The notes beneath the pieces were generated by a model. It was given only the letters and a program-made list of their open reading frames with translations, made no database searches and was not told the DNA's origin. DNA of 35,520 nucleotides, from the IMG/VR virus record IMGVR_UViG_2724679293_000011. One strand, written 5' to 3'. The DNA comes from a virus. Taxonomy: Duplodnaviria > Heunggongvirae > Uroviricota > Caudoviricetes. Positions 16,789-35,520 of this stretch are shown here, piece by piece; within the stretch, counting starts at the first letter, position 1, and every line of letters begins with the position of its first letter. Position numbers and translations under genes: made by a program.

Positions 16789-17062
16789 AATTGACCGGGT
16801 TTCCTACCATCGCAATGACCGACGCCATTGACGCCGCCACACCGTCGACATAAACGGTAATGGACGCACCATGTGTTTTCAGCGCATTAAAAATGGCGAT
16901 GCCTTCAAAGACATCGCCACCCGGTGAATTAATATGGAGATTAATGTGGGTGATATCGCCCAGTGCATTCAGATCACTGATAAACTGCTTCGCTGTAACA
17001 CCCCAGAAACCAATCTCGTCATAAATATAAATATCCGCGTCACTCTGGTGACCAGCCTGCAT
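16757..17062 (-). CDS. ClpP-family (S14) prohead protease, N-terminal segment ending prematurely; upstream segment of the frameshift-split protease-capsid gene
   Basis: Translation from the Met just after the portal stop, MQAGHQSDADIYIYDEIGFWGVTAKQ...INSPGGDVFEGIAIFNAL...GVAASMASVIAMVG, contains the ClpP Ser motif; the matching His motif is in the next frame (15103..16788). Confidence 0.7.
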   Translation of the reverse strand: MQAGHQSDADIYIYDEIGFWGVTAKQFISDLNALGDITHINLHINSPGGDVFEGIAIFNALKTHGASITVYVDGVAASMASVIAMVGNPVNYAGKHLHDDS

Positions 17063-17075
17063 CCTGAACCAGGAA

Positions 17076-18584
17076 TTATTCTTCGGACTGGTCGTCGGTG
17101 TGCTGCGGCTCCTGTCGTTTCGTTGCGGCACTACTGCCTCCTTTATCACTGGCCGGATCGGTATCAAATACCAGATCCAGCTTGCGGTTTTCATCAATTT
17201 CGGCCTTGCGCCGACGTTTGACATCATCCGGATTACGACCACCAGCACGTACCCAGTCTGATTCTGTCGCCGCTCCACCACGAATCTGGATTTTCCAGGC
17301 CTCAGCCTCCTTAACAGGGTCAATCCACGGCATCACTGGTCCGGAATACACCGCGGTATACAGTGAAGAACGGTCAAGATCGCGGGGTAGCCTGATAACA
17401 CCGGATGCCACAGCCTGTTTCAGCCATGCACGATACATCGGGCGGGTGACGGCACCAATAAACCAGTCCTGCAGGATCAGGTAGCCATCAGTGGATTCAA
17501 CCAGCTCCTGACGCTGGGCGCTGTAAGTGCCGTTATAGTTGCGCGCTGTACTGGAAAAACTCAGACGACTGCCCGCCGCCACGGCACGCAACTGACCATT
17601 ACGAAAAGTTTCAAGGTTAGGATTGGGGCGATCCGACTTCACCATTCCGATTTCTTCGCCGGGTTTCAGATCGTCGTAAATAATGCCCGGCTGAATGGTA
17701 AGCTCACGTTCATTCTCCTTTCTGCCATTACCATCCGGTTCATAGCTCTGCCCGTCGCCTTTCCGGATGTACATCCCCAGAGCAGCGGCGATCCTTGCTG
17801 CAGTCAGCTCAGAATCTTCATATTCTTTCAGGGCACTGAGGCGGATCAGCACACCGGACAACAAAGACGTCCCGCGCATCTGGTGCAGACGGCGAACAAA
17901 TTTAAGATGCAGCATTCGCTCTGCATCCACTTCTTTGGTTTCCATCTGCCGTCCGGATACGGGACGGCTTTTATACACCAGATATTTTTCGGGACGCCCC
18001 CAGTCATCAACAAACACGCCCTGATTCAGCCTGTTGCTCTCATCACTAGTCATGGGAATAAAGTCCGGCTCGAGCGCCTCCAGCCAGAAATGAACACCGG
18101 CAGAAGGCGCCAGGCTGTTTATGCGCCCGGAAACCATCTGGGCAAACACCTCACCATCGCGCAGCCAGGTACGAAGCATCAGACGTTCCAGCATCGGACG
18201 GGTAAACTGCCCGGTGACTTCCGGGCTGACAGACCATTCACTCCATCGGGTGCGAATCTCCGCAGCCAGGTCACGGGCAATGGCCCCATTGCGTAATACC
18301 GGATGTGGCTCGACAATAATCCCGTTTTTCCCCACCACCCGTTCTTCCAGCTTGTCAAATACACCAATAACCAGATCGTGGTTGTTATCAAGGTAACGGG
18401 CCTGCTCACGTAACGACACGGCCCCGTACTGGCTTAACTGGTCGGCAGTTCGGTTCTCCCGTCGGGCTTTGTGTGTCCGCGTCGTTTTTACGGCCTCATA
18501 AGCCTGGATCACCGCACGGGAACGCAGCCTTGCCGCTTTCCATCCTGGTGAAAAAACGCCAATCACATCATCAAGAATTGCCAT
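17076..18584 (-). CDS. Portal protein (lambda gpB-like)
   Basis: About 502 aa from the Met whose ATG overlaps the stop of the upstream W-like gene (TGATG); lies between terminase and prohead protease. Confidence 0.85.
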   Translation of the reverse strand: MAILDDVIGVFSPGWKAARLRSRAVIQAYEAVKTTRTHKARRENRTADQLSQYGAVSLREQARYLDNNHDLVIGVFDKLEERVVGKNGIIVEPHPVLRNGAIARDLAAEIRTRWSEWSVSPEVTGQFTRPMLERLMLRTWLRDGEVFAQMVSGRINSLAPSAGVHFWLEALEPDFIPMTSDESNRLNQGVFVDDWGRPEKYLVYKSRPVSGRQMETKEVDAERMLHLKFVRRLHQMRGTSLLSGVLIRLSALKEYEDSELTAARIAAALGMYIRKGDGQSYEPDGNGRKENERELTIQPGIIYDDLKPGEEIGMVKSDRPNPNLETFRNGQLRAVAAGSRLSFSSTARNYNGTYSAQRQELVESTDGYLILQDWFIGAVTRPMYRAWLKQAVASGVIRLPRDLDRSSLYTAVYSGPVMPWIDPVKEAEAWKIQIRGGAATESDWVRAGGRNPDDVKRRRKAEIDENRKLDLVFDTDPASDKGGSSAATKRQEPQHTDDQSEE

Positions 18585-22918: not shown

Positions 22919-23069
22919 ACCATAACGTCCGGCTTCTCTCACTCCTGAGCCGGACTGCATTGGTTTAATAAAAACCATCAACAATTGTGATTTAGATATT
23001 CGGAACCATTCAAATATAACAAAACCCCGTAAAAACGAGGTTTATGGATAAATTTTATTATTGAATACA

Positions 23070-23243
23070 TCAGATTAAATTAATCTTGACATCATAGCTT
23101 TCAAGACCCGTCATTTTTTCCCGTGCGGTAAACTGAATACTGGTAACTTCTTTCCCGGTCTTTTTCTTAAGTTCAATAATTTTTTTTGTTATATATTCAG
23201 AAATATCTGCTTCTGCTTTTGTTTTTAAGTTTTCAATATTCAT
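23070..23243 (-). CDS. gnsB: Gns-family protein (GnsB-like)
   Basis: 57 aa, MNIENLKTKAEADISEYITKKIIELKKKTGKEVTSIQFTAREKMTGLESYDVKINLI, read directly from the sequence; below the ORF-track cut-off; resembles GnsA/GnsB. Confidence 0.75.
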   Translation of the reverse strand: MNIENLKTKAEADISEYITKKIIELKKKTGKEVTSIQFTAREKMTGLESYDVKINLI

Positions 23244-23414
23244 CATTTCCTCTTTTAGTCTGTTATGACTTTCCAGTTACACAGTAAGTCGATTATATGG
23301 TGCAAACGTGTAAAAGATAAGATGAAACATCGCAATAATCAACATACGATAGTCTAAATTTTACACAAACAGACAAAGAAAATTTTCCTGAATTATCAAT
23401 ACAATAGCATCAAA

Positions 23415-23645
23415 TCAACTCAAGAGCCTTATTGCTGCTTCCAGAATTTCTTCTGAAGTAACATGTCGATCCGCGGCTACATAAATGACTTTATGATCTC
23501 CGGTCAGAGATGGAAACCCTGCGGCCATTACAGTAAGGTGTGTTTTTTCGCCATTTGGATATTCACGCATGATGGTGTTAACTCCAGTCATCGCTGGCAC
23601 TACCACTGCTGGTTCAGAGTTAAAAAAAACTATGATTTTTTTCAT
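23415..23645 (-). CDS. Hypothetical protein (76 aa)
   Basis: Start at MKKIIVFFNSE...; preceded by a hairpin plus T-run terminator at about 23691-23715; no family recognised. Confidence 0.45.
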   Translation of the reverse strand: MKKIIVFFNSEPAVVVPAMTGVNTIMREYPNGEKTHLTVMAAGFPSLTGDHKVIYVAADRHVTSEEILEAAIRLLS

Positions 23646-23916
23646 GATGTTACCGTAGTATGTGAGTATCCATCGAATAGATACCAAGCAAAAAAGCTCC
23701 CGAAGGAGCCTTCATTTTCACTTTTTTAAATCCAACGACAGACGGCTGGCATTTAAGTATTGTGAAATATTATCAAATGTAATCATCATTGATTTACAAA
23801 AGATACATTTTGCCCCGAAAGGATTCATGTCAGAAACATCAAAAGATGATGTTCTATACTGGGAACCATGACAACACGGGCATCTAAAGTGAATATGGTT
23901 TGTAATATTGTCTACC

Positions 23917-24129
23917 TCAAAGCGCCACTACATGAACAGCGGCAGGACCTTTAGGTCCGTTCTCAATACCAAATTCAACTTCCTGATTCTCAGTTAATGT
24001 TTTGAAATCGTTGCTCTGAATTGCTGAGAAATGGACAAACACATCTTTGCTGCCATCTTTCGGCGTGATGAAACCAAAACCTTTTTCAGGGTTAAACCAT
24101 TTCACTAAACCAGTCATTTTGTTAGACAT
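23917..24129 (-). CDS. cspI: Cold shock protein (CspA family), CspI-like
   Basis: 70 aa, [70 protein letters not shown], with RNP1/RNP2 cold-shock-domain motifs; a long AT-rich leader upstream (24130-24480) is typical of csp genes. Confidence 0.9.
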
Positions 24130-24490
24130 AATTATTACCTTTTGAAGAAATTAGCCCTTGGGCAGAATGGTCCGAAAAAAATATCAGAGAGAAAAACCAA
24201 CAAGGAAATCTCAAGAGGTACAAATAATAAAATTATAACAATGACTGCTTCAGATAAATTTGTAACAAACCAGAACACCATTAACGCATGATTAACCACC
24301 CATAGCAAGGATTACTTTTGTAAAGAAAAACACAGCAATGAAAGAATAGCTTTATTTATTAATAAAACGTGTCATTCTGATTAAGACCTTTTATCTTACC
24401 CTTAAGATTTCAGGAATTTTGGCTCATGGAAGAGTCCTTTTTATTTAAATTTTACATTCCGCGATGTAAATGTTCCGATTTAATATTACC

Positions 24491-25514
<1,024 letters not shown>

Positions 25515-25518
<4 letters not shown>

Positions 25519-25826
25519 ATATATTTATGATGAGGACGCTCGTGCTTATTGGCAGGATTTTCAATCTTAAAGGAGTACTGATGCTGCAGATAAGACTCAA
25601 CTTTTTCTGACAATTTTTCTGCTACTTCCAGGAAGACTTGCCGGACGCTCCTTCTGGCTGCTGCCTCATAAAACTCCAGCGCAGCTCCTTCAACACGGTC
25701 CATGGCGACATCCAGGTCAAAAATTTCACCGTCAAAGCGTTCCTTGTCCTGTAAGGCTACAGTTACCGTAACTTTATTCTCAAAATTACGGACTCCTTTC
25801 ACAACCAGTTCATAGTCTTGAGTCAT
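25515..25826 (-). CDS. ydfR: DUF1327-family protein (YdfR-like) between holin and lysozyme
   Basis: 103-aa ORF translationally coupled to the lysozyme; position matches K-12 Qin ydfR as recalled. Confidence 0.65.
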
Positions 25827-25830
25827 TGGA

Positions 25831-26046
25831 TTACTCTCCTCTCGCAGCCTTACGCCTGTCTTCTTTAATCTTGAAATAAAGATTTGTCAGATACGTCAGC
25901 AGGCCAAAAACCAGGCTACCCAGCACACCGATTGCAGCCCACTGTGACGGAGTTACTTTATCGAGTAACTGTAATGCCCAGAAACCAGCATTACCCGCCG
26001 ATGTGCCATAGGCAACACCTGTTGTTAACTTATCCATTGATTTCAT
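25831..26046 (-). CDS. essQ: Holin
   Basis: 71 aa from [71 protein letters not shown]; two hydrophobic segments and a charged C-terminus; first gene of the lysis cassette. Confidence 0.85.
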
Positions 26047-26265
26047 ATCCTCACCCCGATGTACACGGATGGTGCAATATGTTTGAAAAAGATCGGAGTC
26101 TACGGGGTAGTTTTGACAGCACACGTTGTTCTCAACGGCGCTAAAGAAACATACACATTAAAAATGTGAGTAATTATTTTGAAAGAAAGTCATATATAAA
26201 ATAATAATACGAGAAATGTTTTCATATTTAGTGTACTGTATACGGCCATTATACAGGAAAAGCCT

Positions 26266-26436
26266 ATGTCAGAACGTAAAGACTCAAAATCACGCCGTAA
26301 TTATCTCGTTAAATGTTCCTGCCCAAACTGCACCCAAGAGTCAGAACACAGTTTTTCAAGAGTACAAAAAGGTGCCCTTTTGATCTGCCCTCATTGCAAC
26401 AAAGTATTCCAGACAAATCTTAAAGCTGTAGCCTGA
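26266..26436 (+). CDS. Small zinc-ribbon protein (56 aa, two CxxC pairs), YnfU-like
   Basis: MSERKDSKSRRNYLVKCSCPNCTQESEHSFSRVQKGALLICPHCNKVFQTNLKAVA read from the sequence; AGGAAA ribosome-binding site; below the ORF-track cut-off. Confidence 0.55.
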   Translation: MSERKDSKSRRNYLVKCSCPNCTQESEHSFSRVQKGALLICPHCNKVFQTNLKAVA

Positions 26437-26494
26437 TTGATTTTATTAGTAACAAGTATTTTTTATATTTTAATAATATATTTAAAGCAGATAA

Positions 26495-26518
26495 TAAAAA
26501 ACCCGCCTGAGCGGGTTT
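26495..26518 (-). terminator. Rho-independent terminator downstream of cspB
   Basis: acccgcc-tga-gcgggt hairpin preceded by A6 on the plus strand (hairpin plus TTTTTTATTAT on the minus strand). Confidence 0.45.
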
Positions 26519-26799
26519 GAGATTGTGGTGCTTTTTGTGGGAGTCATCCACTTACGCACTTTGTTTTGCGATGCCAGCAGTTAGCTTCTGCTGTGAAACT
26601 ATTCATGCAGCAAACCTGCACTTCACCACAATGGTTAGCATACTTTTCCTGATTAAGATTTTGCCAAATATGCTAGCCATTGTTTCATGTATTGGACCTC
26701 CTTACTTTTTATTAAAGAGATCCAATATTCACTACTCTGTCCGTATCTCTACTCAGGCATCAGCCTTCTTCGTTATCGTATACAGACGAGCGATGAATT

Positions 26800-27015
26800 T
26801 TAATCAGTAATGATGACATTTGCTGCTGCAGGACCTTTAGCACCTCTCTCTATAGAGAAGGTAACCTTTTGACCTTCAAATAAGGTTCGATAATTATCAT
26901 TCTGAATCGCAGAAAAATGCACAAACACATCTTTACTACCATCAACAGGAGAAATAAAGCCGAAACCTTTATCAGCGTTAAACCATTTTACTAAACCAGT
27001 CATTTTATTTGACAT
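26800..27015 (-). CDS. cspB: Cold shock protein CspB-like
   Basis: 71 aa, [71 protein letters not shown]. Confidence 0.9.
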
Positions 27016-27325
27016 TCTACATTCCTTAACTTGAGCCTTTCGGCATAAATGGTTTGCATAACAGAAACGACTTCGTACTTAATTGGAGAGACTCAAAGAA
27101 GGAATAAGTGAATAACACCTGAAATGAGAACTGCTTTAGTAAACTACTTCGTATATCGTCTGTTCTTCAAACCGACGCAGTCATTAACTCATAGTTGAAC
27201 ATATGAAGCAATGTTTATTTTAGACATCCAGCCACCTTCAATCCTATCAAAAAAGTAGTTTTCTCCAGGAACGTGTGTATGGTGCACCAGGTTATCAGTA
27301 TTAAGGAGTTTTTCTGTCCCCTAAA

Positions 27326-27522
27326 ATGACAGGAATTGTCAAAAACTTTGACTACAAAAGCAGCAAAGGTCTTATATTCCCATCCGATGGCGTATCGATG
27401 CCCAGCTTCACGTTTCAGCTCTCAATCTTCGAGATGCAGAAGAAATTACCACAGGATTACGCGTGGAATTTTGCTGGATAAATGGTTCGCGTGGACCTTC
27501 AACTGCCAATGTTTATCCCGGG
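27326..27522 (+). pseudogene. cspF: Cold-shock gene remnant (CspF-like) disrupted by a 1-nt frameshift and loss of the normal stop
   Basis: Frame A from the ATG at 27326 gives [22 protein letters not shown], then goes out of frame around 27390. The Csp-like continuation [42 protein letters not shown] is in the next frame and reads on for about 100 more codons. Confidence 0.55.
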
Positions 27523-27557
27523 ATGAGATTCAATATCTCTATTGCCCCATTTAAAGC

Positions 27558-27597
27558 ACAAAAACCCGCTTATAAGCGGGTTTTCTACTTTTTTCTA
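27558..27597. terminator. Bidirectional rho-independent terminator (candidate tR' for the late promoter; also ends the cspF-like transcript)
   Basis: cccgcttataagcggg hairpin flanked by an A-run upstream and a T-run downstream. Confidence 0.5.
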
Positions 27598-27630
27598 AAC
27601 GTCGGATACACAAAGCCCATCGTTGAGAAA

Positions 27631-27659
27631 ATCTTATCCATATTTTTTGAAAAATGCAA
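27631..27659 (-). promoter_or_regulatory. Candidate Q-dependent late promoter (pR'-like) immediately downstream of Q
   Basis: On the minus strand: TTGCAT, 17-nt spacer, TAAGAT, about 40 bp downstream of the Q stop and just upstream of the terminator hairpin. Confidence 0.3.
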
Positions 27660-27690
27660 ACATCATGTCGCCATCTTCAGCAAAAATCAT

Positions 27691-28443
27691 TTATCTCGTC
27701 ACCTTCCTCAATTGCGCTTCCGCGTATGCTTCTTCCTGCCAGCACTTTGTTACCAGTTTACCAATGACGTCCGCATACCCCTTATACCACTGATAATCGG
27801 TCAGGTCTGGTACCAGCTTCTGGACATGACGTCGTGCCAGCGTGGTCGGTAAACGACTAAACCGGTTTCCATTACAACGCCCACAAATCTTATATACCGG
27901 TACGCCATGAAACCGGGTTCTTTTTTCATCCAGAACAATCCCTTTACCCTTACACCCTCTGCACGCTGTGCTGACTTCGCCCTTACCATGGCAATGCTGA
28001 CATAGTTCCTTCACCCATTCTTCCTTGATTACAGATTCCCCGCGTCTGTAGTGTTTCACCACTTCGCGCAATACATTATAAAATCCCGTACCTGAACAAT
28101 GCTCACAGCGAGCCTTACTTGCCGCAGACCTGGAGTAATCAGCAAAGGCAAAATTCACGAGGTAAGGAATAATCTGTAACCGGATTTCTTCACTCAATTT
28201 GTTCAATGTCGGGTTATCCAGTGCCATCGCGTAATTTAGCAGGCCTTCAATCGCAAACTGAGCGTCCTGAACACCAACTTTTGCCAGAAATAAGGCCAAC
28301 CCAAGTGGTGCTTTCGACTGCACCATCCCCTGCGCTGCCATTACATCCGTAATTGTTAAACAACCGGTGCCTGTCGCTGGAGCGTCATCGCTCAATTTTG
28401 GAGATTTTGGGGAGTAATATTTTGGTAAGGCTTCAAGGTTCAT
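27691..28443 (-). CDS. Q: Late-gene antitermination protein Q
   Basis: About 250 aa from [15 protein letters not shown]...; several CxxC zinc-binding-like motifs ([30 protein letters not shown]); sits upstream of the lysis cassette. Confidence 0.85.
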
Positions 28444-28456
28444 GCTCGTTCTCCAC

Positions 28457-29506
28457 TTACGCCAGTACGCCAATTGCCAGCGCGCGATCGATAAAACGAA
28501 ATATCAGCTCCAGTTGGGAGCCATACTTCTCTTCAAATGCCACTGTATCCGTATGCAGCTCGTTGTGATGCTTTCTGCACAAAGGCAACACAAAGAGATC
28601 ATGTGCTTTTGTTCCCATTCCGCCCTGCCCGTGACCAATCAGATGATGCGGATCGTCGGCTGGCATACCGCAGCAAGCACACGGCTGTGTCTTAACCCAA
28701 CGTGTGTATTTCTCCTTAACCCAGCGGCGACGTTTAGGCAGCTTCATGAAAGATTCCGGAGACTCTGGATCAACGGTGATGCTTACCACCGCCTTTTCCT
28801 GTGGTGTTTTTTGTTGCTGGTGGGCGTAAGGCAACGGTGCAAGATTTTTTGTGCGTTGTTTCAATATGCTGGTGGCGGTCTGCTCTCCCGGTACGATGTC
28901 GCTTTCGCGGTACACCGAGCAGATTTTTTCCGCTGGTAATCCCAGCGAACGACGCGATACAGCCTCAGGTAGTGCATCCACCACCTGATTGCAGACCGCC
29001 CACCAGGATAATTCAGCCAAAGATAATTCCCGCTCCTGCGTACCGCTTATTGCGTGACGGATGACGTCAATCACCCATGCTGTCAGATTTTGTTGAGCAA
29101 GCAGCTCCAGTGATTCCGATGTCTGGTCACGCAGTTGGTTGTCGCAGTGCCAACACAACACCATTGCGCCGGTACCATAACGGTGAATGACTGTTTCAGA
29201 GTGATGGTAATCGCCATTAGGCCACTGGCAGGATGTAACATGACGTAATAGCCAGTCAGACAATGCGCCAACACCGCCAGCAGCACGAATCACCCGTTCG
29301 TTACTAAAAAACGGCAGCAATGTTTTGTCTTCCGCCAGCGACTGGCGAACGGCAGGAACGACTCCGGATGGCAGATTACGCATGCTTTTTGGTTCCGGTT
29401 CCACCAGCACTCGAGGATTATGAAATATCTGTATGGATTCACGGCCCGGCTTAAGGACCACCAGCCCAAGCTCAGGCACCAGAACAGGTCTAAGTAATAC
29501 CCGCAC
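28457..29506 (-). CDS. ydfU: DUF968-family protein (YdfU-like)
   Basis: 349 aa if started at the GTG behind GGAGG (the ORF extends to 29545); C-terminal Cys/His-rich region (CACCGMPADDPHHLIGHGQGGMGTKAHD...LCRKHHNELH). Confidence 0.75.
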   Translation of the reverse strand: MRVLLRPVLVPELGLVVLKPGRESIQIFHNPRVLVEPEPKSMRNLPSGVVPAVRQSLAEDKTLLPFFSNERVIRAAGGVGALSDWLLRHVTSCQWPNGDYHHSETVIHRYGTGAMVLCWHCDNQLRDQTSESLELLAQQNLTAWVIDVIRHAISGTQERELSLAELSWWAVCNQVVDALPEAVSRRSLGLPAEKICSVYRESDIVPGEQTATSILKQRTKNLAPLPYAHQQQKTPQEKAVVSITVDPESPESFMKLPKRRRWVKEKYTRWVKTQPCACCGMPADDPHHLIGHGQGGMGTKAHDLFVLPLCRKHHNELHTDTVAFEEKYGSQLELIFRFIDRALAIGVLA

Positions 29507-29507
29507 G

Positions 29508-29786
29508 TTACCTCCAGATCCGTTGCTGGAAAGTGCGGGACGCACGTGGTGGGCGTTCGGAGTAAGGCAATCTGACTGAGATTATCCAGTGACGGTAGTC
29601 GAGGCTAAGGGCTTTCTTAACCTCGTATCCGCGCCTGCGGTAACACTGAATTATCCATTCAGCCTGCTCTTCAGTGCATGGAGGGTGTTGGAACCATTCA
29701 GACTTGAATGCGTGAGAATACCGCTCGTGCGTGCAGACAAGAACGGGCGAATTATCAGAATTGTAATATTTTACGTTGCGTGCCAT
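29508..29786 (-). CDS. Hypothetical protein (92 aa), translationally coupled to ydfU
   Basis: Its stop overlaps the ydfU ribosome-binding site and start region; no family recognised. Confidence 0.5.
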   Translation of the reverse strand: MARNVKYYNSDNSPVLVCTHERYSHAFKSEWFQHPPCTEEQAEWIIQCYRRRGYEVKKALSLDYRHWIISVRLPYSERPPRASRTFQQRIWR

Positions 29787-29852
29787 CGGTTTTCTCCGGT
29801 GGCACGGTGTTACTCAGCGGGAGTTCAGCCCCGCGCAAGATTGTAGATGAGT

Positions 29853-30104
29853 TTATTCTTCTGCAAAAGCTGAAAAGCCTGCTTTTATTCCGATCTCTTT
29901 CAGTGCCTGTAATGAAGTGACAAACTCACCTTCGCGCAAGATAAATCCGTCTGTCACTCGACCATCCACAAAATTAATTAACGCAGCCCCATTCTTTCGC
30001 AAACACATAATGCGGTAATGACTAACAAAATTTCCATTTTCAACGCACACAGCATAGAGGCCATCTTCACAAAAAATTTTACGCAGTTCTTCGATGTTCA
30101 TCAT
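29853..30104 (-). CDS. Hypothetical protein (83 aa), possibly Rem-like
   Basis: 83-aa ORF MMNIEELRKIF... between hokD and ydfU, the position and length I recall for K-12 Qin rem; the sequence itself was not recognised. Confidence 0.5.
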   Translation of the reverse strand: MMNIEELRKIFCEDGLYAVCVENGNFVSHYRIMCLRKNGAALINFVDGRVTDGFILREGEFVTSLQALKEIGIKAGFSAFAEE

Positions 30105-30220
30105 CAGAATCCTTCCGGATAATTAGCTCTCCCCTTTAAGGGACCATCCCTCTTATCCCTGCGCGCTACTTAAGTATTTTTGATTCTATTCCGGCACCGT
30201 CCAGAACTTCAAACGCGTTG

Positions 30221-30252
30221 AAAATAAAAACAAAAACCCGCCGAAGCGGGTT
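30221..30252 (-). terminator. Rho-independent terminator downstream of hokD
   Basis: acccgc-cgaa-gcgggt hairpin followed on the minus strand by TTTTTGTTTTTATTTT; a second perfect hairpin (ggcgaggga-tttc-tccctcgcc, about 30292-30313) sits directly after the hokD stop. Confidence 0.55.
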
Positions 30253-30320
30253 AAGTGCGGGTGCGTTGAGGATGCCTGCCACATCAGAGGTGGCGAGGGA
30301 TTTCTCCCTCGCCGGGTTTC

Positions 30321-30476
30321 TTACTCCTCAGGTTCGTAAGCTGTGAAGACAGCGACCTCCGTCTGGCCGGTTCGGATTCGTACCTCGCAGAGGTCTTTCC
30401 TCGTTACCAGTGCCGTCACTATGACGGTTAAACAGATGACGATCAGGGCGATTAACATCGCCTTTTGCTGCTTCAT
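30321..30476 (-). CDS. hokD: Hok-family type I toxin (HokD/RelF-like)
   Basis: 51 aa, MKQQKAMLIALIVICLTVIVTALVTRKDLCEVRIRTGQTEVAVFTAYEPEE; an in-frame upstream extension to 30533 (MLDICRLASYVPKGKEKQA-) may be a mok-like leader. Confidence 0.85.
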   Translation of the reverse strand: MKQQKAMLIALIVICLTVIVTALVTRKDLCEVRIRTGQTEVAVFTAYEPEE

Positions 30477-30687
30477 AGCCTGCTTCTCCTTGCCTTTCGG
30501 CACGTAAGAGGCTAACCTACATATGTCTAGCATGAAATTGGCCTCAGATTAATGTTAAGCGTCTTGCAGGACGCGTAATGTTAACTGGGGCTTTTCTCTA
30601 TCTGCCGTTGGTGTTCATGCCCGAGGCAGATAGCCTCAAGCACCCGCAGCCATTCTACTTAACTACCGTTACCTCGCCAATGTGAAA

Positions 30688-30780
30688 TCAGTCAGAAAGG
30701 CGATCCATAAGAACAATAGCAAGACAATAAATCGCCATTACAGCCGTAATAGCCAGCGCACATTTGAGAACCAGCACCAC
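30688..30780 (-). CDS. Possible small hydrophobic peptide gene (29-30 aa, single predicted transmembrane helix)
   Basis: AGGAGG followed by GTG GTG ...; translation (M)VLVLKCALAITAVMAIYCLAIVLMDRLSD then TGA; about 150 nt upstream of hokD; below the ORF-track cut-off. Confidence 0.3.
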   Translation of the reverse strand: MVLVLKCALAITAVMAIYCLAIVLMDRLSD

Positions 30781-31150
30781 AACCTCCTGTATTGGACGTA
30801 GACCAGTCCTGATGAATATGAGGCTGTCTCGTCAGTGATTCAATACAACTATTGGGTATAGTTTCTCTGATTTTTTCTGTGGAAATGGGGCACAACCACT
30901 AGTCACCACCAGCACTTCTTTTAATACGCAAAGTCCGACACAAGCTAACCTTCTAGTCCGCTTTGAGCGAAAAACAGCCATAATTTAGTGCCACGTATAT
31001 AATGATAGAGCTATTCAAGCTAGCAATTCACATGTAAAAATTCAGAGGGTAGAAGCACATAGTTATAAATGTTGGCTCCATCGACAAATTGCGGTCTCAA
31101 GTACATTTATTAATGTTGCCCCCGCATTAACAAATCATCAAGGTGACGAC

Positions 31151-32938
31151 ATGGACGATATTAATATCAGCCTCGACGAACTTAACACTATTGATTTATC
31201 CCCCTTAATCCAGAGTAAGCTGCCAGTTACCTGCTTTGATATCACAAAGTATCTTTCTAGCCTAGGTGATGGAAGAGCGGAGATAAGACTGCTAACCCAT
31301 ATTTGCGGTTTTCACTTTCGTCCCGAAAATCCACAGGTACCATTTGGTCCGTGCTTTCAAAGCAGCCAAGGTAGATCTGCAATTCCGGATGACATTAACG
31401 GGTTGTCGCTGGAGGTACTTTCTCAATTTTGCCCGACGATAGAGCTACCCGAACTTCAAGCTCGTATTGCTGATACACTTTGGGTTCGTAAAATTGGTGG
31501 AATCCGTTTTCCTTTGCTGGCAGTCCGTGCTTATTATGCGTCCAGTATAGCTATTATGACATCGCAAGGGACGTGGGTTAGTGCTTTAGAACGCCTAGAG
31601 CGTGCGCTTAGGCTGTGTTGTTTTTTTCGAAAGCATACTGATTTCAGGGATGAATTTGATCAGCTTTCGGCACATCTACTAGCAGAGTATGAACGTACCA
31701 GAGAACAAGGCGATTCACCTTATCCGCTGCGACTCCTGCAACTCGATATCGACTGTAAAGTGAGTGAGCCATCTTTTATTGCCCAGGAACTCCTGTTTCT
31801 GACAAAAAACTATCTGGCTCAAAAATTATTTTCATTTGCCGTCGATGCCTGTAAAACCGCAATCCCGATTGCGAATAGGTGCTGTGACAGAGATACACAG
31901 TTTGAATTCTGGCGGCTTCTTGCCGATACACATCTGGAAGAGTCAAAATTCCAAGATGGCGGTATGATTTCGGCAGCCTGCATGCAGAATGCTATTGAAG
32001 CACTGGCTAATATTCCAGGAACCCGAATAGAACGTCTTGCGCTGTATGAAGAAATGCGTGATTACCAAATCGAATCCCGTCACCAGATGTCTATCCTTCA
32101 GTCTCCCCCTCAAGATATTAGTGAGATTGTCCATCAAGCCAAGAGTCGGGTAGTCGGAAGAGATTTGTTTGATATGGTTTTCAGACTTGCGATGCTGGTC
32201 TGTCGGCCAACCAGCATTGAGAGACTTAAGGCTCAAGCAATAGAACAAAAGGCCAACAGCATAGCTTGGATGTTTGGATCAACACATATTGATCATGAGG
32301 GAATGACACTTGCTCGCATACCCGCAGGATTGGGGATTGATGATGCAAATGGGGCAGTTATTTGGCCCATAATGATGACGAGAATGCGTATCGACCATGA
32401 GTTGGCAGTAGCTGGGCAAATTATTCCTGCTACAGATGAGATCACAATGAAATATCCAATCTCGGAGGCGTTTTTTCGCGATATGTTCATCAATCATCCC
32501 TTCATCCCGTTTGGGCATGAAGAGTTTTTCATCAAGGGTATGGTTTGCGGTTTCAATGGAGATTTTATGACGGCATGCCACGTGTTGATTCCCCAGATCG
32601 AAAATAGTCTGAGATATGTGGCTAAAATTAAAGGTGAGGAACCATCGCAGCTTCACGGGGACGGTTCGCAAGAGCGAAATGGACTCAAGGGATTACTAGA
32701 TAATCCACTGATTATTGAAGCTTTCGGCGTAGACATAATTGGCAATCTTCAGGCCTTACTGGTAGATAAAATCTATGGTGATTTACGAAATCAACTAGCT
32801 CACGGATATGTGCCTGCCGGTTACTACAATCAACCTCCCTGCATTTTTGCATGGTGGCTTGTATTGCACATTCTAATGAACCCTACGGCGAGATACTGGC
32901 AAGCCACTTATGGCCAAGAGAGTGAGGCTCAGACTTAA
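31151..32938 (+). CDS. Unknown 595-aa protein with C-terminal HEPN-like R-x4-H motif (LRNQLAHGY); candidate abortive-infection or defence effector
   Basis: Clean ATG ORF with an AAGGTGA ribosome-binding site on the strand opposite the surrounding prophage genes, and a long AT-rich leader; the motif R546-N-Q-L-A-H551 is encoded at 32786-32803; no Walker A/P-loop seen; family not recognised. Confidence 0.8.
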   Translation: MDDINISLDELNTIDLSPLIQSKLPVTCFDITKYLSSLGDGRAEIRLLTHICGFHFRPENPQVPFGPCFQSSQGRSAIPDDINGLSLEVLSQFCPTIELPELQARIADTLWVRKIGGIRFPLLAVRAYYASSIAIMTSQGTWVSALERLERALRLCCFFRKHTDFRDEFDQLSAHLLAEYERTREQGDSPYPLRLLQLDIDCKVSEPSFIAQELLFLTKNYLAQKLFSFAVDACKTAIPIANRCCDRDTQFEFWRLLADTHLEESKFQDGGMISAACMQNAIEALANIPGTRIERLALYEEMRDYQIESRHQMSILQSPPQDISEIVHQAKSRVVGRDLFDMVFRLAMLVCRPTSIERLKAQAIEQKANSIAWMFGSTHIDHEGMTLARIPAGLGIDDANGAVIWPIMMTRMRIDHELAVAGQIIPATDEITMKYPISEAFFRDMFINHPFIPFGHEEFFIKGMVCGFNGDFMTACHVLIPQIENSLRYVAKIKGEEPSQLHGDGSQERNGLKGLLDNPLIIEAFGVDIIGNLQALLVDKIYGDLRNQLAHGYVPAGYYNQPPCIFAWWLVLHILMNPTARYWQATYGQESEAQT

Positions 32939-33035
32939 AGTGAATAAGTTTACGAAGTTGGCACTTCCGGATGCATGTCCATATGAGTTGAGGCGATTTG
33001 GTTAATAAGGTTGAGTGCTGCTGAAATTATTCGAT

Positions 33036-33059
33036 GTCCGCTTTTGGCACAAAGCGGAC
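33036..33059. terminator. Perfect 9-bp stem hairpin in the convergent intergenic region between the 595-aa gene and the 133-aa gene
   Basis: gtccgcttt-tggcac-aaagcggac; no strong U-tract on either strand, so a terminator role is uncertain. Confidence 0.3.
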
Positions 33060-33156
33060 AACCACGCCAGATCTACCCTGTGCCATGAAAAATGAGAATG
33101 TCAATTCACTCCTGAACTAATGCTTTTTAATCTAGTAACGTCTAAAATACCTAACA

Positions 33157-33558
33157 TTATCCCTGATAAAATGCCAGTATGCGCTGCATAACTTCACTCA
33201 TCCGGCACTCGCGACAGATTATGTTTAGGCGACTGTCGTAGCGACGTATTTCTCCATCAGGTAACGACCAGATAAGGTCCGGATCAACCACAGCTGTTTT
33301 CTTCACCTTTGCCCTCGAGAGTTTTTTGCGGGCGTTTTGCCAGTCCTTACGCGCCTGTTCAGACGGGAATAACCCGTAGCCGGAGTTGTATACATCGCCA
33401 CTGGCTACCAGCTCTCTGGCAAGAACGCTCATCAGATATCTAGTCGCACCTGTTTTAGCTTCCAGTTGCCGTAACGTCTCACGACCGCTCTGGCGCACGA
33501 GTTCCACCACCTGCCCTTTAATTTTTTCCCGCTCTTCTTGTGTAAAAACTTTTGCCAC
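33157..33558 (-). CDS. Hypothetical basic protein (133 aa) immediately downstream of the O-like replication gene
   Basis: GTG start behind AAGGGGGA; C-terminal CxxC (CRECRM); occupies the position of a replication partner (P-like) but is too small and unlike lambda P. Confidence 0.55.
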   Translation of the reverse strand: MAKVFTQEEREKIKGQVVELVRQSGRETLRQLEAKTGATRYLMSVLARELVASGDVYNSGYGLFPSEQARKDWQNARKKLSRAKVKKTAVVDPDLIWSLPDGEIRRYDSRLNIICRECRMSEVMQRILAFYQG

Positions 33559-33598
33559 AAGTCCCCCTTAAAATTACCTCATGACCTGAAATCAAAAC

Positions 33599-34463
33599 TT
33601 ATCCTCTGAAACCAGGCGGAATTTCTGTATTCGGTTCAGAAATATGATTAACACAACGCTGTACAGGTGAACGCCCCAGGCGGATGACCAGTTCGTCCCA
33701 TTTTTCGCGGAGCTTTGACGGGCTCATGATGTTTTTTACCCAGAATGGATCCCGCTGTACCCGACCAAACATTTCACAAATTTGTCTGTGGCTTCTGCCA
33801 TCCAGCATCCGCATTGTGCGCACATCATTGGCCCAGACAGTCCAGTTAGGCTCTTTTGGTCGCATGATCTCGCCATCATCACTGGCGGCCTGTTCGTAGA
33901 GACCCACGATCCGCCCCCATATCCACTGCGCACACGCCAGATCCTCCTGGCTACCCCACTGGCGTTTTTTCGCACTAAACACAACTGCGCCAGGGTGCCG
34001 GATTAAAAAATCCTGTTCAGCCGTCTGCGGGTCCGGTTGCGAAGCTTCCGGACGAAAAGTGTTTTTATTCTCTGTAGTAATCTCTGTTGTATTCTCTGTA
34101 GGATCATCGGGCCATTTTGACCCGATGACATTGGGTCGTTTTGAACCAATGGAGCGTTTCATTTTGACCTCTTCCATCGTGTCATTTTGACCTGATGGAG
34201 CGGCGCATTTTGAACCGATGGATTCGCTCAATTTGCCATCATCTAAAAGCTCGCTCCCATAGTTAATCGTGTAGAAATTGGTCATATCGCGCTTTGATTT
34301 ATTGAGCTTTTCACAACGCAAAAGCCCCAGCGTTTTCAGACTTGCAAACGCGCGCTTTAACGTTGACTCTGACCAGAATGGGAACTGTTCCAGCCATTGT
34401 TCCGTTGTGTTGTAAATCCAGCGAACACCATCACATTCCATGCCGGAATTGGTATCTCTCAAC
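33599..34463 (-). pseudogene. Replication initiator (lambda O-like, iteron-binding), 5'-truncated by IS903 insertion
   Basis: The ORF 33599..34552 continues about 30 codons into the IS903 left end, so its native N-terminus is displaced; the gene body contains the iteron array, which shows up in the protein as repeated SIGSK-type peptides. Confidence 0.65.
34110..34230. repeat. Origin-like iteron array: five direct repeats with consensus CATTTTGAMCYGATGG at 22-25 bp spacing, adjacent to an AT-rich segment (34060-34105)
   Basis: Repeats begin near 34113, 34138, 34160, 34183 and 34206 and lie inside the O-like gene, as the lambda ori iterons lie inside O. Confidence 0.6.
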
Positions 34464-35520
34464 GGCTTTGTTGAATAAATCGAACTTTTGCTGAGTTGAA
34501 GGATCAGATCACGTATCTTCCCGACAACGCAGACCGTTCCGTGGCAAAGCAAAAGTTCAAAATCACCAACTGGCCCACCTACAATAAAGCCCTCATCAAC
34601 CGTGGCTCCATAACTTTCTGGCTGGATGATGAGGCGATTCAGGCCTGGTATGAGTCAGCAACACCTTCTTCACGAGGCAGACCTCAGCGCTATTCTGACC
34701 TTGCCATCACGACTGTGCTGGTCATTAAACGCGTATTCAGGCTGACCCTGCGCGCTGCGCAGGGCTTTATTGATTCCATTTTTTCTCTGATGAACGTTCC
34801 GCTACGCTGCCCGGATTACAGCTGTGTCAGCAGGCGGGCAAAGTCGGTTAATGTCAGTTTCAAAACGCCCACCCGGGGTGAAATCGCACACCTGGTAATT
34901 GATTCCACCGGGCTGAAGGTCTTCGGTGAAGGCGAGTGGAAAGTCAAAAAGCATGGCCAGGAACGCCGCCGTATCTGGCGTAAGCTGCATCTCGCCGTTG
35001 ACAGTAAAACACATGAAATCATCTGCGCTGACCTGTCGCTGAACAACGTTACGGACTCAGAGGCCTTCCCCGGGTTAATCCGGCAAACCCACCGGAAAAT
35101 CAGGTCAGCCGCCGCCGATGGCGCTTACGATACCCGGCTATGTCACGATGAACTGCGGCGTAAGAAAATCAGCGCGCTTATCCCTCCCCGAAAAGGTGCG
35201 GGTTACTGGCCCGGTGAATATGCAGACCGTAACCGTGCAGTGGCTAATCAGCGAATGACCGGGAGTAATGCGCGGTGGAAATGGACAACAGATTACAACC
35301 GTCGCTCGATAGCGGAAACGGCGATGTACCGGGTAAAACAGCTGTTCGGGGGTTCACTGACACTGCGTGACTACGATGGTCAGGTTGCAGAGGCTATGGC
35401 CCTGGTACGAGCGCTGAACAAAATGACGAAAGCAGGTATGCCTGAAAGCGTGCGTATTGCCTGAAAACACAACCCGCTACGGGGGAGACTTACCCGAAAT
35501 CTGATTTATTCAACAAAGCC
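34464..35520 (+). mobile_element. IS903-group insertion sequence (IS5 family), complete 1057-bp copy with 18-bp terminal inverted repeats
   Basis: Left end GGCTTTGTTGAATAAATC at 34464-34481 and its exact reverse complement at 35503-35520; length 1057 bp as recalled for IS903; the window ends at the last base of the element. Confidence 0.9.
34496..35464 (+). CDS. IS903 transposase (DDE, IS5 family)
   Basis: 322-aa ORF from a TTG start; ...KQKFKITNWPTYNKALINRGSITFWLDDEAIQAWYESATPSSRGRPQRYSDLAITTVLVIKRVFRLTLRAAQGF... matches IS903/IS102 transposase as recalled; the annotated start may be the internal GTG (307 aa). Confidence 0.9.
   Translation: MKDQITYLPDNADRSVAKQKFKITNWPTYNKALINRGSITFWLDDEAIQAWYESATPSSRGRPQRYSDLAITTVLVIKRVFRLTLRAAQGFIDSIFSLMNVPLRCPDYSCVSRRAKSVNVSFKTPTRGEIAHLVIDSTGLKVFGEGEWKVKKHGQERRRIWRKLHLAVDSKTHEIICADLSLNNVTDSEAFPGLIRQTHRKIRSAAADGAYDTRLCHDELRRKKISALIPPRKGAGYWPGEYADRNRAVANQRMTGSNARWKWTTDYNRRSIAETAMYRVKQLFGGSLTLRDYDGQVAEAMALVRALNKMTKAGMPESVRIA

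Follow-up and report, generated by a model that had tools for sequence, protein, structure and literature searches.

Adjacent deletions by IS903 are described as common in PMC11708052, which cites Weinert et al. 1983, and a target motif, WTTYA-N9-TRAAW, has been published for the element (PMC2577343). In phage lambda, the origin of replication lies inside the initiator gene O, with four annotated iterons at nt 349-433. The window analysed here, a 35,520-nt stretch of viral DNA (IMG/VR record IMGVR_UViG_2724679293_000011), carries IS903B in codon 34 of the lambda-O-like gene of a Qin-type E. coli prophage, which is an ordinary gene knockout. The element and the process are both known; the transposase and the pseudogene are already labelled as such in public annotation. 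The best explanation of the locus is an insertion of IS903B into the O-like gene of a Qin-family prophage, followed in sister genomes by deletions that run outward from the element, and we hold this with high confidence.

The insertion sequence occupies the right end of the window and comprises the following features.

Positions 34464 to 35520, plus strand: complete IS903B (IS5 family, IS903 group), 1057 bp, matching annotated copies at 1057/1057 positions.
Positions 34464 to 34481, plus strand: left inverted repeat (IRL), 18 bp, GGCTTTGTTGAATAAATC, complementary at 18/18 positions to 35503-35520 and facing the remnant of the O-like gene.
Positions 35503 to 35520, plus strand: right inverted repeat (IRR), 18 bp, whose final base is the last base of the window.
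Positions 34496 to 35464, plus strand: open reading frame of the DDE transposase, 322 codons from TTG, as in RefSeq WP_000654812.1.

Over its full length the copy is 100% identical to copies on plasmids that bear the annotation 'IS5-like element IS903B family transposase', and at least 5000 records match it. Compared with reference IS903B, the element itself shows no difference, and only its insertion site is particular. Its length, 18-bp repeats and single DDE transposase are those of the IS903 group, whose 9-bp target duplication is seen in one sister contig (L007). The inverted repeats are perfect (18/18), the two ends differ at position 19, and the right end reads ...GATTTATTCAACAAAGCC. 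One transposase frame fills the element, as in the IS903 group, with Pfam matches to DDE_Tnp_1_5 (E 3e-40) and DDE_Tnp_1 (E 7e-33); alternative gene calls begin at GTG 34541, for a product of 307 aa. The same copy is present at 1057/1057 positions and in the same orientation at loci L003, L004, L007, L008, L011 and L013. The first-pass annotation, made from the letters of the window, had described a complete 1057-bp IS903-group element with intact 18-bp repeats that ends exactly at the window edge, and both statements agree with the full-length match and with the last base of IRR at 35520.

To the left of the element lie the interrupted gene, the predicted origin and one further gene of the replication module.

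Positions 33599 to 34463, minus strand: 3' remnant of the O-like initiator gene (nt 102-966, codons 35-321 plus stop), whose intact 321-aa counterpart is found at loci L001 and L002.
Positions 33599 to 34552, minus strand: chimeric open reading frame, 317 codons from a TTG start; its opening 89 nt belong to IS903B and run outward across IRL.
Positions 34455 to 34463, no strand: left copy of the 9-bp target, TCTCTCAAC, which is single in the IS-free strain DEC9B.
Positions 34105 to 34243, no strand: predicted origin iteron array, five copies with the core CATCGGGYCATTTTGACCCGATG, inside the O-like gene.
Positions 34050 to 34104, no strand: A+T-rich stretch with three 12-bp repeats, TATTCTCTGTAG, adjoining the iterons.
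Positions 33157 to 33558, minus strand: DUF977 gene, annotated 'Ren-like exclusion protein' or LygF (Pfam DUF977, E 6e-27; PHROG 142).

Comparison with IS-free homologous prophages, as proposed at the first pass, defines the damage. The E. coli strains DEC9B and ATCC 25922 carry an uninterrupted gene of 966 nt and 321 codons, and they are 99.9-100% identical to the window over positions 33100-34463. Measured against them, the O-like gene breaks after nt 101, in codon 34, and the remnant is left without its start codon and first 34 codons. The insertion parts it from these and from the early rightward operon (cro, ydaT, O), and RefSeq labels it a pseudogene in the complete E. coli genome 7_33_46A. 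The intact protein belongs to PHROG 391 'replication initiation O-like' (E 7.5e-92, residues 17-321); a Pfam search with it gave no family. BLASTP aligns residues 147-294, in its C-terminal half, with residues 135-270 of lambda O at 34% identity over 148 aa (E 3e-27), and the last 20 residues are similar to the C-terminal end of host DnaT. With a cut after nt 101 of 966 in a PHROG 391 member, the earlier placement of the IS in the 5' part of a replication initiator gene stands. The same is true of the chimeric frame, for which about 30 IS-derived codons had been counted and 89 nt, or 29.7 codons, were found. An automatic gene caller reports this frame as a gene on five public contigs. A promoter scan of the left end of the IS found no outward-facing promoter-like site that could drive it.

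The predicted iterons are spaced 23-24 bp apart, and each is partly palindromic. They lie at nt ~322-460 of the O-like gene, and the array begins 221 bp from the IS, untouched by the insertion. By analogy with lambda ori, the A+T-rich stretch at 34050-34104 is likely the unwinding region. The N-terminal domain would begin with the missing 34 codons; if lambda O is a guide, this domain may be the part that binds origin DNA specifically. A functional initiator would then not be made, while the cis-acting origin within the gene would persist. That prophage replication is abolished, as the first-pass annotation had put it, can reasonably be inferred. Since the origin iterons survive, an initiator acting in trans is possible. 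Related O-like genes do occur elsewhere in the same genomes (a median of 2 matching places per genome, with 4 in 7_33_46A), and they may complement the loss on the intact origin. The DUF977 gene, which belongs to the replication module and is now downstream of the IS, is intact. Its position directly after the O-like gene is common to the free phages HannyBb, mEp460_ev081 and PhiR42_1. Neither a lambda P nor a DnaC-like loader gene was found directly downstream of the O-like gene, where DUF977 is next in the window, in the IS-free prophages and in the free phages. This weakens the view that the module works exactly like lambda O-P, but not the identity of the initiator.

The prophage hit by the IS is lambdoid, belongs to the Qin family and is integrated between ydfJ and rspB; O26:H11 ST29 strains are part of its E. 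coli lineage. In this prophage, the fusion gene for the prohead protease and major capsid protein carries a +1 frameshift at about 16791, so the earlier description of an otherwise nearly complete prophage was wrong. A look-up with the 124-aa fragment upstream of the frameshift retrieved matching loci, and one with the 561-aa downstream fragment returned no record. A lysozyme look-up gave 47,373 blocks, too unspecific to reveal the order of frameshift and IS insertion. Over positions 2399-35520, the window and 7_33_46A share 33,122 consecutive identical bases, capsid frameshift included. L007 and L008 can be compared with the window over 11.9 kb, positions 23599-35520, and show no difference there. 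In the left 2.4 kb, 39 mismatches cluster in a tail-fibre region that recurs among prophages. Because the window is identical to all alleles wherever they can be compared, its right flank fits a simple insertion or a right-hand deletion. The window most likely stops at the IS because its source genome holds several copies of the element and assembly halted where these diverge.

Sister genomes carry the sequence onward, and they fall into several alleles. The sequences beyond the right end of the IS are as follows.

Allele A (simple insertion), past the right end of the IS: TCTCTCAAC and then CAGTAATGC..., also given as TCTCTCAACCAGTAATGCAAC and TCTCTCAACCAGTAATGC.
Allele B (strain 36493), right flank: GTTCGACAC, in the exonuclease gene; junction read of the 3.5-kb deletion, GTTCGACACATGTG.
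Allele C (7_33_46A), right flank: GTTCGATAA, in rspB; junction read of the 8.4-kb deletion, GTTCGATAATCGAC.
Allele E (L013), right flank: CGCTTTTTC; junction read of the 7.9-kb deletion, CGCTTTTTCCAGTC.

In L007 (GCA_001571845.1, a draft E. coli assembly), the IS is flanked by two perfect direct copies of TCTCTCAAC. This assembly and three similar contigs have allele A: their right flank opens with the second copy of the 9-mer, continues with the 101 nt displaced from the 5' end of the O-like gene, and then runs through ydaT, cro, the repressor gene, dicB, the exonuclease gene, xis, int and rspB. Four of the five public contigs with the chimeric frame represent such a simple insertion plus duplication. 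In the best explanation, IS903B transposed into codon 34 by ordinary cut-and-paste, with duplication of the 9-bp target. Chance is not a realistic account of the IS identity, the gene interruption, the chimeric frame or the 9-mer. The first-pass annotation had predicted both the duplication, with its left copy at 34455-34463, and a displaced 5' end. The position and both copies are seen in L007, and the 5' end there and in the three similar contigs. At least two well-assembled long-read genomes with a base-identical left junction, 36493 and 7_33_46A, have neither the duplication nor the displaced 5' end, which is the outcome it had named as refuting its reading; IS-adjacent deletions removed both there. 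Three junctions were sought by exact match in the viral contig collection, namely the left one, the right one of the simple insertion and the right one of 7_33_46A; each gave 0 matches. Samples E92 and E94, considered as a second occurrence of the junction, were rejected; they hold an independent, 86%-identical IS903-group element in the neighbouring ydaT. The insertion site agrees with WTTYA-N9-TRAAW at 5 of 10 specified positions by our own count, with ~3.5 expected by chance, and the motif does not fit the deletion end points checked by eye. Given this poor fit, the IS903 target motif is of no help in choosing a mechanism.

The remaining alleles share the anchor and differ in what has been removed. 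In strain 36493 (L008), whose assembly is a second version from Illumina plus PacBio data, the left junction is identical, the duplication is absent, and the IS abuts the exonuclease gene with 3,518 bp lost. In 7_33_46A, also with an identical left junction and no duplication, the IS abuts nt 49 of rspB, and the 8,428 bp lost include the immunity region, int/xis and attR. This genome stands alone among 5,426 complete E. coli genomes in having the left junction, and neither of its two junctions recurs in any other complete genome. L011 (allele D) has a left-side deletion and keeps the right junction and the right copy of TCTCTCAAC. L013 (allele E) has deletions on both sides of the IS. The O-like remnant itself is lost in alleles D and E, both of which are supported by short-read contigs that run across a repeat. 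Deletions from IRR thus measure 3.5, 7.9 and 8.4 kb, and those from IRL 8.9 and 11.5 kb. Right-side deletions are frequent in the lineage, since 7_33_46A, 36493 and L013 each carry one. In the sister genomes the IS keeps one junction, the other end is new and no duplication is found, as in an IS-adjacent deletion. Since its insertion, the same IS copy has thus served in these genomes as a fixed anchor for one-sided deletions eating outward into the prophage. The most likely mechanism is IS903 adjacent deletion through intramolecular transposition.

The sequence GTTCGA is common to two independent deletion end points, and it might reflect an unrecognised target preference of the right end of IS903B.

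In the source genome of the window, the IS may not mark a simple insertion at all: the right end could abut distant DNA, in rspB or the exonuclease gene, with the displaced 5' end, the immunity region and possibly int/xis and attR gone, no duplication present, and the prophage permanently locked in by a deletion instead of damaged in a single gene. We regard this as a serious possibility, at somewhat under an even chance. The sole complete genome with the junction (1 of 5,426) has the 8,428-bp deletion and matches the window at 33,122 consecutive bases, and further independent right-side deletions are present in 36493 and L013. Yet four of five public contigs with the chimeric frame show a simple insertion with duplication and are identical to the window over 11.9 kb, and the window sequence is compatible with both states alike. 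An assembly artefact, in which the junction of O-like gene and IS would be a chimeric join through the repeated element, is suggested by the end of the window at a repeat and by the 39-mismatch cluster in the left 2.4 kb. Its probability is nonetheless close to nil, as independent projects report a base-identical junction in a complete genome, an assembly from Illumina and PacBio data and a 212-kb draft contig.

The deletions could equally have come from RecA-dependent recombination between two directly oriented IS903B copies, the second inserted elsewhere in the prophage or beside it, not from transposase acting in cis. The end product would be the same (one IS, one old and one new junction, no duplication), and IS903B is multi-copy, with ~5 sites on the 7_33_46A chromosome. 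In another sample, window position 23882 adjoins one more IS903B end, so additional insertions into the prophage do occur. However, the 5,426 complete genomes yielded none with two flanking copies, and each 7_33_46A junction is unique to that genome among them. PMC11708052 reports that IS903 makes adjacent deletions readily, and with at least five independent end points (three at IRR, two at IRL) on one copy, a process in cis is simpler; we consider recombination rather unlikely. Very improbable is a gain of function, in which the chimeric frame, or a restart at the ATG of 'MECDG' (native codon 41), would be expressed as a truncated initiator with a new role, such as interference with the replication of incoming phages of the same type. 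The 317-codon frame is open and automatically called, and the C-terminal domain and DnaT-like tail are intact. The IS left end nevertheless offers no outward promoter-like site, the TTG start has a poor ribosome-binding context, RefSeq treats the remnant as a pseudogene, and its deletion in alleles D and E argues against selection for keeping it.

Insertion into the O-like gene followed by outward deletions in sister genomes is, in itself, a textbook event, a known IS disrupting a prophage gene. A wider proposal, which we consider unlikely, is that this one IS903B copy repeatedly generates deletions in both directions in natural E. coli populations, O26:H11 ST29 strains among them, with at least five independent deletions starting from it. 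If true, it would be a natural nested-deletion series in which one side first loses the region of immunity, dicB and recombination plus the integration module, and the other side loses antiterminator and lysis genes. Should selection have shaped the end points or how often they occur, IS-driven prophage domestication could be traced in a pathogen lineage; possible advantages are the loss of toxic early genes (dicB, ydaT) and the retention of the candidate defence gene PDC-S39 together with the structural genes. The locus also bears on how prophages are read from contigs. A contig end at an IS masks what lies beyond, here either a one-gene knockout or a loss of 3.5-8.4 kb, and a hidden loss of that size would cover immunity, integrase and part of a host operon. 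A verdict of 'nearly intact' from gene content alone is likewise unsafe, given the capsid frameshift. Alleles on one IS copy are possible lineage markers among related E. coli isolates, and together they offer a small natural case of stepwise prophage erosion by IS elements.

Compared with known systems, the replication module is partly lambda-like. The O-like protein's C-terminal domain is homologous to that of lambda O, the iterons lie at the same relative position within the gene and are followed by an A+T-rich stretch, and the gene likewise follows cro and the gene in the cII position. In contrast, the N-terminal domains do not align and are unrelated in sequence, five iterons of different sequence replace the four of lambda ori, DUF977 stands where a P-like or DnaC-like loader would be next, and the protein ends in a DnaT-like tail of 20 residues. 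The module also occurs in the free phages HannyBb, mEp460_ev081 and PhiR42_1, with the same O-like plus DUF977 arrangement at 97% nucleotide identity and no IS; their 321-codon gene is unbroken and bears the annotation replication initiation O-like.

The prophage as a whole resembles Qin of K-12 (L024), which occupies the same ydfJ-rspB site and shares ydfK, pinQ, tfaQ, cspI, rzpQ, rrrQ, ydfR, cspB and cspF, as well as ydfT, ydfU, rem, hokD, dicB and ydfD. K-12 Qin has already shed the O-like gene, DUF977, the greater part of ydaT and almost every head and tail gene, whereas the prophage in the window has a full structural gene set and stands at an earlier stage of decay. The deletions of Weinert, Schaus and Grindley 1983, as cited in PMC11708052, likewise combine a fixed IS junction with varied distal joins and no duplication. 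The multistep events of the E. coli long-term evolution experiment, in which an IS insertion is followed by an adjacent deletion and its extension, show the same pattern. Unlike those cases, the series described here occurs in natural isolates, on both sides of one IS copy and within a prophage.

The insertion sequence at the right edge of the window is IS903B itself. Over its full length it is 100% identical to annotated plasmid copies, which are labelled 'IS5-like element IS903B family transposase' in at least 5000 records. Its ends are perfect 18-bp inverted repeats (GGCTTTGTTGAATAAATC) that differ from each other at position 19, and its single ORF (34496-35464) matches both DDE transposase families in Pfam. 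The final base of the window is the final base of the right inverted repeat. The first-pass annotation had described a complete 1057-bp IS903 element with 18-bp repeats ending at the window edge, and all of these points were reproduced at the same coordinates. The features considered here are as follows.

34464-35520, complete IS903B, 1057 bp
34552 (TTG, within the IS) to 33599, minus strand, chimeric ORF, 317 aa
34105-34243, putative iterons inside the O-like gene, five partly palindromic repeats with 23-24 bp spacing
33599-33661, minus strand, DnaT-like tail, last 20 codons of the O-like gene
16757-17131 and 15103-16788, minus strand, pieces of the capsid fusion gene, 124 + 555 codons

A search of window 33100-34463 against 5,426 complete E. 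coli genomes returned many relatives with 99.9-100% identity. In two IS-free relatives, DEC9B and ATCC 25922, the O-like gene is uninterrupted: it spans 966 nt (321 codons) and has a 20-nt overlap with the end of ydaT, and a DUF977 gene comes next. Homology of the window to this intact gene ends after nt 101, which places the IS in codon 34 and leaves codons 35-321 in the window; the interruption in the 5' part of the gene had thus been read correctly. No Pfam family matched the intact protein. Its assignment as an O-like replication initiator is nevertheless well supported by several lines of comparison. The protein matches PHROG 391 'replication initiation O-like' (E 7.5e-92), and its residues 147-294 align with lambda O residues 135-270 (34% identity, E 3e-27); the N-terminal part gave no alignment with lambda O. 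The putative iteron array, next to which an A+T-rich stretch carries three 12-bp repeats, lies at nt ~322-460 of the gene, and the four annotated ori iterons of lambda lie at nt 349-433 of O. Three free phages, HannyBb, mEp460_ev081 and PhiR42_1, also carry the O-like and DUF977 pair uninterrupted, at ~97% identity.

The extreme C-terminus of the O-like protein (QRCVNHISEPNTEIPPGFRG) shares 13 of 20 residues with the extreme C-terminus of DnaT, a host replication-restart protein, the match lying at the very end of both proteins. This tail matches PDB chains 2ru8, 6aep and 9zbt_D (E 0.0012) as well as the ends of PHROG families 18526 and 3729. In the literature consulted, no role is assigned to this tail. 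Taken with the absence from the module of any gene resembling lambda P or DnaC, the resemblance suggests that the initiator of the phage may recruit the host helicase by borrowing a DnaT interaction.

The insertion leaves the initiator gene without its start and first 34 codons and severs the remnant from the cro-ydaT-O transcription unit. It does not touch the origin repeats. A functional initiator would hence not be made, and the prophage would be unable to start its own replication. Polarity on the downstream genes, from DUF977 through the ydfT antiterminator gene, is likely. A compatible initiator could possibly be supplied in trans, because related O-like genes occupy a median of two places per genome in the complete E. 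coli genomes searched. The chimeric ORF, for which about 30 IS-derived codons had been proposed, is present, its first 89 nt (29.7 codons) coming from IS DNA. A function for it is unlikely, since a scan of the IS left end for an outward-facing promoter-like site found none, the remnant is a pseudogene in RefSeq, and it is deleted from two of the sister alleles described below (D and E).

The earlier description of the IS as the sole lesion of a nearly complete prophage does not stand. The gene for the prohead protease/major capsid fusion (with a ClpP-like protease) carries an extra T at about 16791, a +1 frameshift relative to the intact 2028-nt gene of DEC9B (AATTGACC in the window, AATGACC in DEC9B). 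The same frameshift is found in E. coli 7_33_46A, where RefSeq flags it, and many public samples have contigs that share it; at least 38 blocks of a public collection contain the 124-aa fragment. The prophage is therefore not otherwise intact, and it is defective in head formation independently of the IS.

The junction between the O-like gene and the IS occurs in just one of the 5,426 complete genomes, that of the bovine isolate 7_33_46A from Nebraska (240/240 identical). Further alleles came from two look-ups: that of the exact 317-aa chimeric product, which is present on five contigs of public assemblies, and that of the frameshifted capsid fragment, which gave alleles D and E and an extra junction. 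The IS is 1057/1057 identical, with unchanged orientation, in all alleles. In allele A (GCA_001571845.1; 212-kb contig LPYC01000174.1, with three more similar contigs), the 9-mer TCTCTCAAC (GTTGAGAGA on the strand of the gene) stands on either side of the IS. Beyond it come the displaced 5' end of 101 nt and then ydaT, cro, the repressor gene, dicB, the exonuclease gene, xis, int and rspB. Allele B (GCA_001039225.2) belongs to strain 36493, a Shiga toxin producer of type O26:H11 ST29 that was isolated in France in 2013 and is covered by a re-analysis study with Illumina and PacBio data; there the IS adjoins GTTCGACAC within the exonuclease gene, and 3,518 bp are gone. Allele C is that of 7_33_46A. 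Its IS right end adjoins GTTCGATAA, nt 49 downward of chromosomal rspB, then rspA and ynfA, and not the 5' end of the O-like gene. Measured against DEC9B, which has identical sequence on either flank, this genome lacks 8,428 bp. The lost segment covers the 5' end of 101 nt, ydaT, cro, the repressor gene, ydfA, dicB, ydfD, the exonuclease gene, xis, int, the right attachment site and the greater part of rspB. Comparison of its IS flanks (left TCTCTCAAC, right GTTCGATAA) revealed no target duplication. Allele D (GCA_007648925.1) keeps the right junction, with the duplicate, the O-like 5' end and ydaT, and has lost window 25590-34463 from the opposite side. Allele E (Logan contig, run SRR14866951) lacks window 22922-34463 on the left; its right-hand loss is 7,871 bp, with the end point inside rspB. 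Alleles A to C rest on long contigs or complete genomes, whereas D and E are short-read contigs that cross the IS and call for more caution; the new junctions that they show must nonetheless exist. The extra junction is in Logan contig SRR25925108_203, whose last 27 nt are an inverted IS903B end adjoining window 23882. It represents either another insertion in this prophage or an inversion that arose by intramolecular transposition.

The base-identical junction and the duplication show a single ancestral IS903B insertion of the usual kind. The IS-free DEC9B (USA, 1979), with both flanks identical, is O26:H11 ST29, as is strain 36493. The 9-bp target duplication of that insertion is seen in allele A; the later alleles each retain one old junction, and their other IS end joins a new, more distant point without duplication, which is the signature of IS-adjacent deletions. 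Such deletions are reported to be common for IS903 and thought to use a replicative pathway, according to a passage of PMC11708052 citing Weinert et al. 1983. Alternatively, a second IS903B copy could have inserted and recombined with the first, giving an identical product; however, no two-copy intermediates were seen among the 5,426 complete genomes. Both independent right-side end points (GTTCGACAC in allele B, GTTCGATAA in 7_33_46A) begin with GTTCGA, and the original target, outward from the IS left end, is GTTGAGAGA. By chance, two unrelated sites would agree at six bases in about 1 case in 4096, so the match is unexpected; the published IS903 target motif does not account for it.

The first-pass interpretation is hence right for the ancestral event, as the sister genomes verify. 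The predicted 9-bp duplication and displaced 5' end are present in allele A but absent from alleles B and C, which carry right-side deletions, so a duplicate cannot be expected in every right flank. Wherever comparison is possible, the window does not differ from any of alleles A, B and C, so the odds for the source genome are about even between simple insertion and right-side deletion. Against 7_33_46A the match runs gap-free along all 35,520 bases, with 39 mismatches, all at 1614-2398, and identity throughout 2399-35520. The window limits fit an assembler extending until its graph forks: the left end lies inside a tail-fibre gene of a kind repeated among lambdoid prophages, and the right end is the last base common to all copies of IS903B, which occupies ~5 places in the 7_33_46A chromosome. 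Under such a stop, the IS would be multi-copy in the source genome and the true right flank on another contig.

Several further features of this prophage family were observed. The 39 differences from 7_33_46A or DEC9B are confined to a 785-bp stretch in the tail-fibre N-terminal region and the lom end, the other 33 kb being identical. This suggests that a paralogous prophage tail-fibre gene either recombined with the region or contributed to it through assembly cross-talk. E. coli E94 (L006, 5419-6475) and E92 carry an independent simple insertion in the neighbouring gene ydaT of the homologous prophage. The inserted element is a different member of the IS903 group, 911/1057 identical (about 86%) to the window IS; its orientation is the same, and it is flanked by an 8-9-bp duplication. 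The early-right region of these prophages seems to be hit repeatedly by the IS903 group; a published re-analysis places IS903 insertion hotspots in H-NS-bound DNA (PMC11335895). DEC9B holds another independent hit, an IS2 between hokD and the DUF4209 gene (L001, 2765-3993). The latter gene lies on the opposite strand between hokD and the DUF977 gene:

31151-32938, plus strand, DUF7380/DUF4209 protein, 595 aa

Its product matches the PADLOC candidate defence family PDC-S39 (E 2e-102). Other Qin-type prophages have relBE-flxA, an FRG-domain protein or an AAA_13 ATPase at the same spot, apparently a variable slot for cargo or defence genes.

Insertion followed by adjacent deletions is a classical process. 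Nothing here is a new kind of system, and all that is mildly unusual is that at least five natural deletions form a series anchored on a single IS copy. The K-12 cryptic prophage Qin occupies the same locus and already lacks the whole replication module and most structural genes. Compared with lambda, the module has no P-like or DnaC-like loader gene downstream of the O-like gene, and the O-like protein has a different N-terminal domain, whereas the iteron array sits at an equal relative position within the initiator gene.
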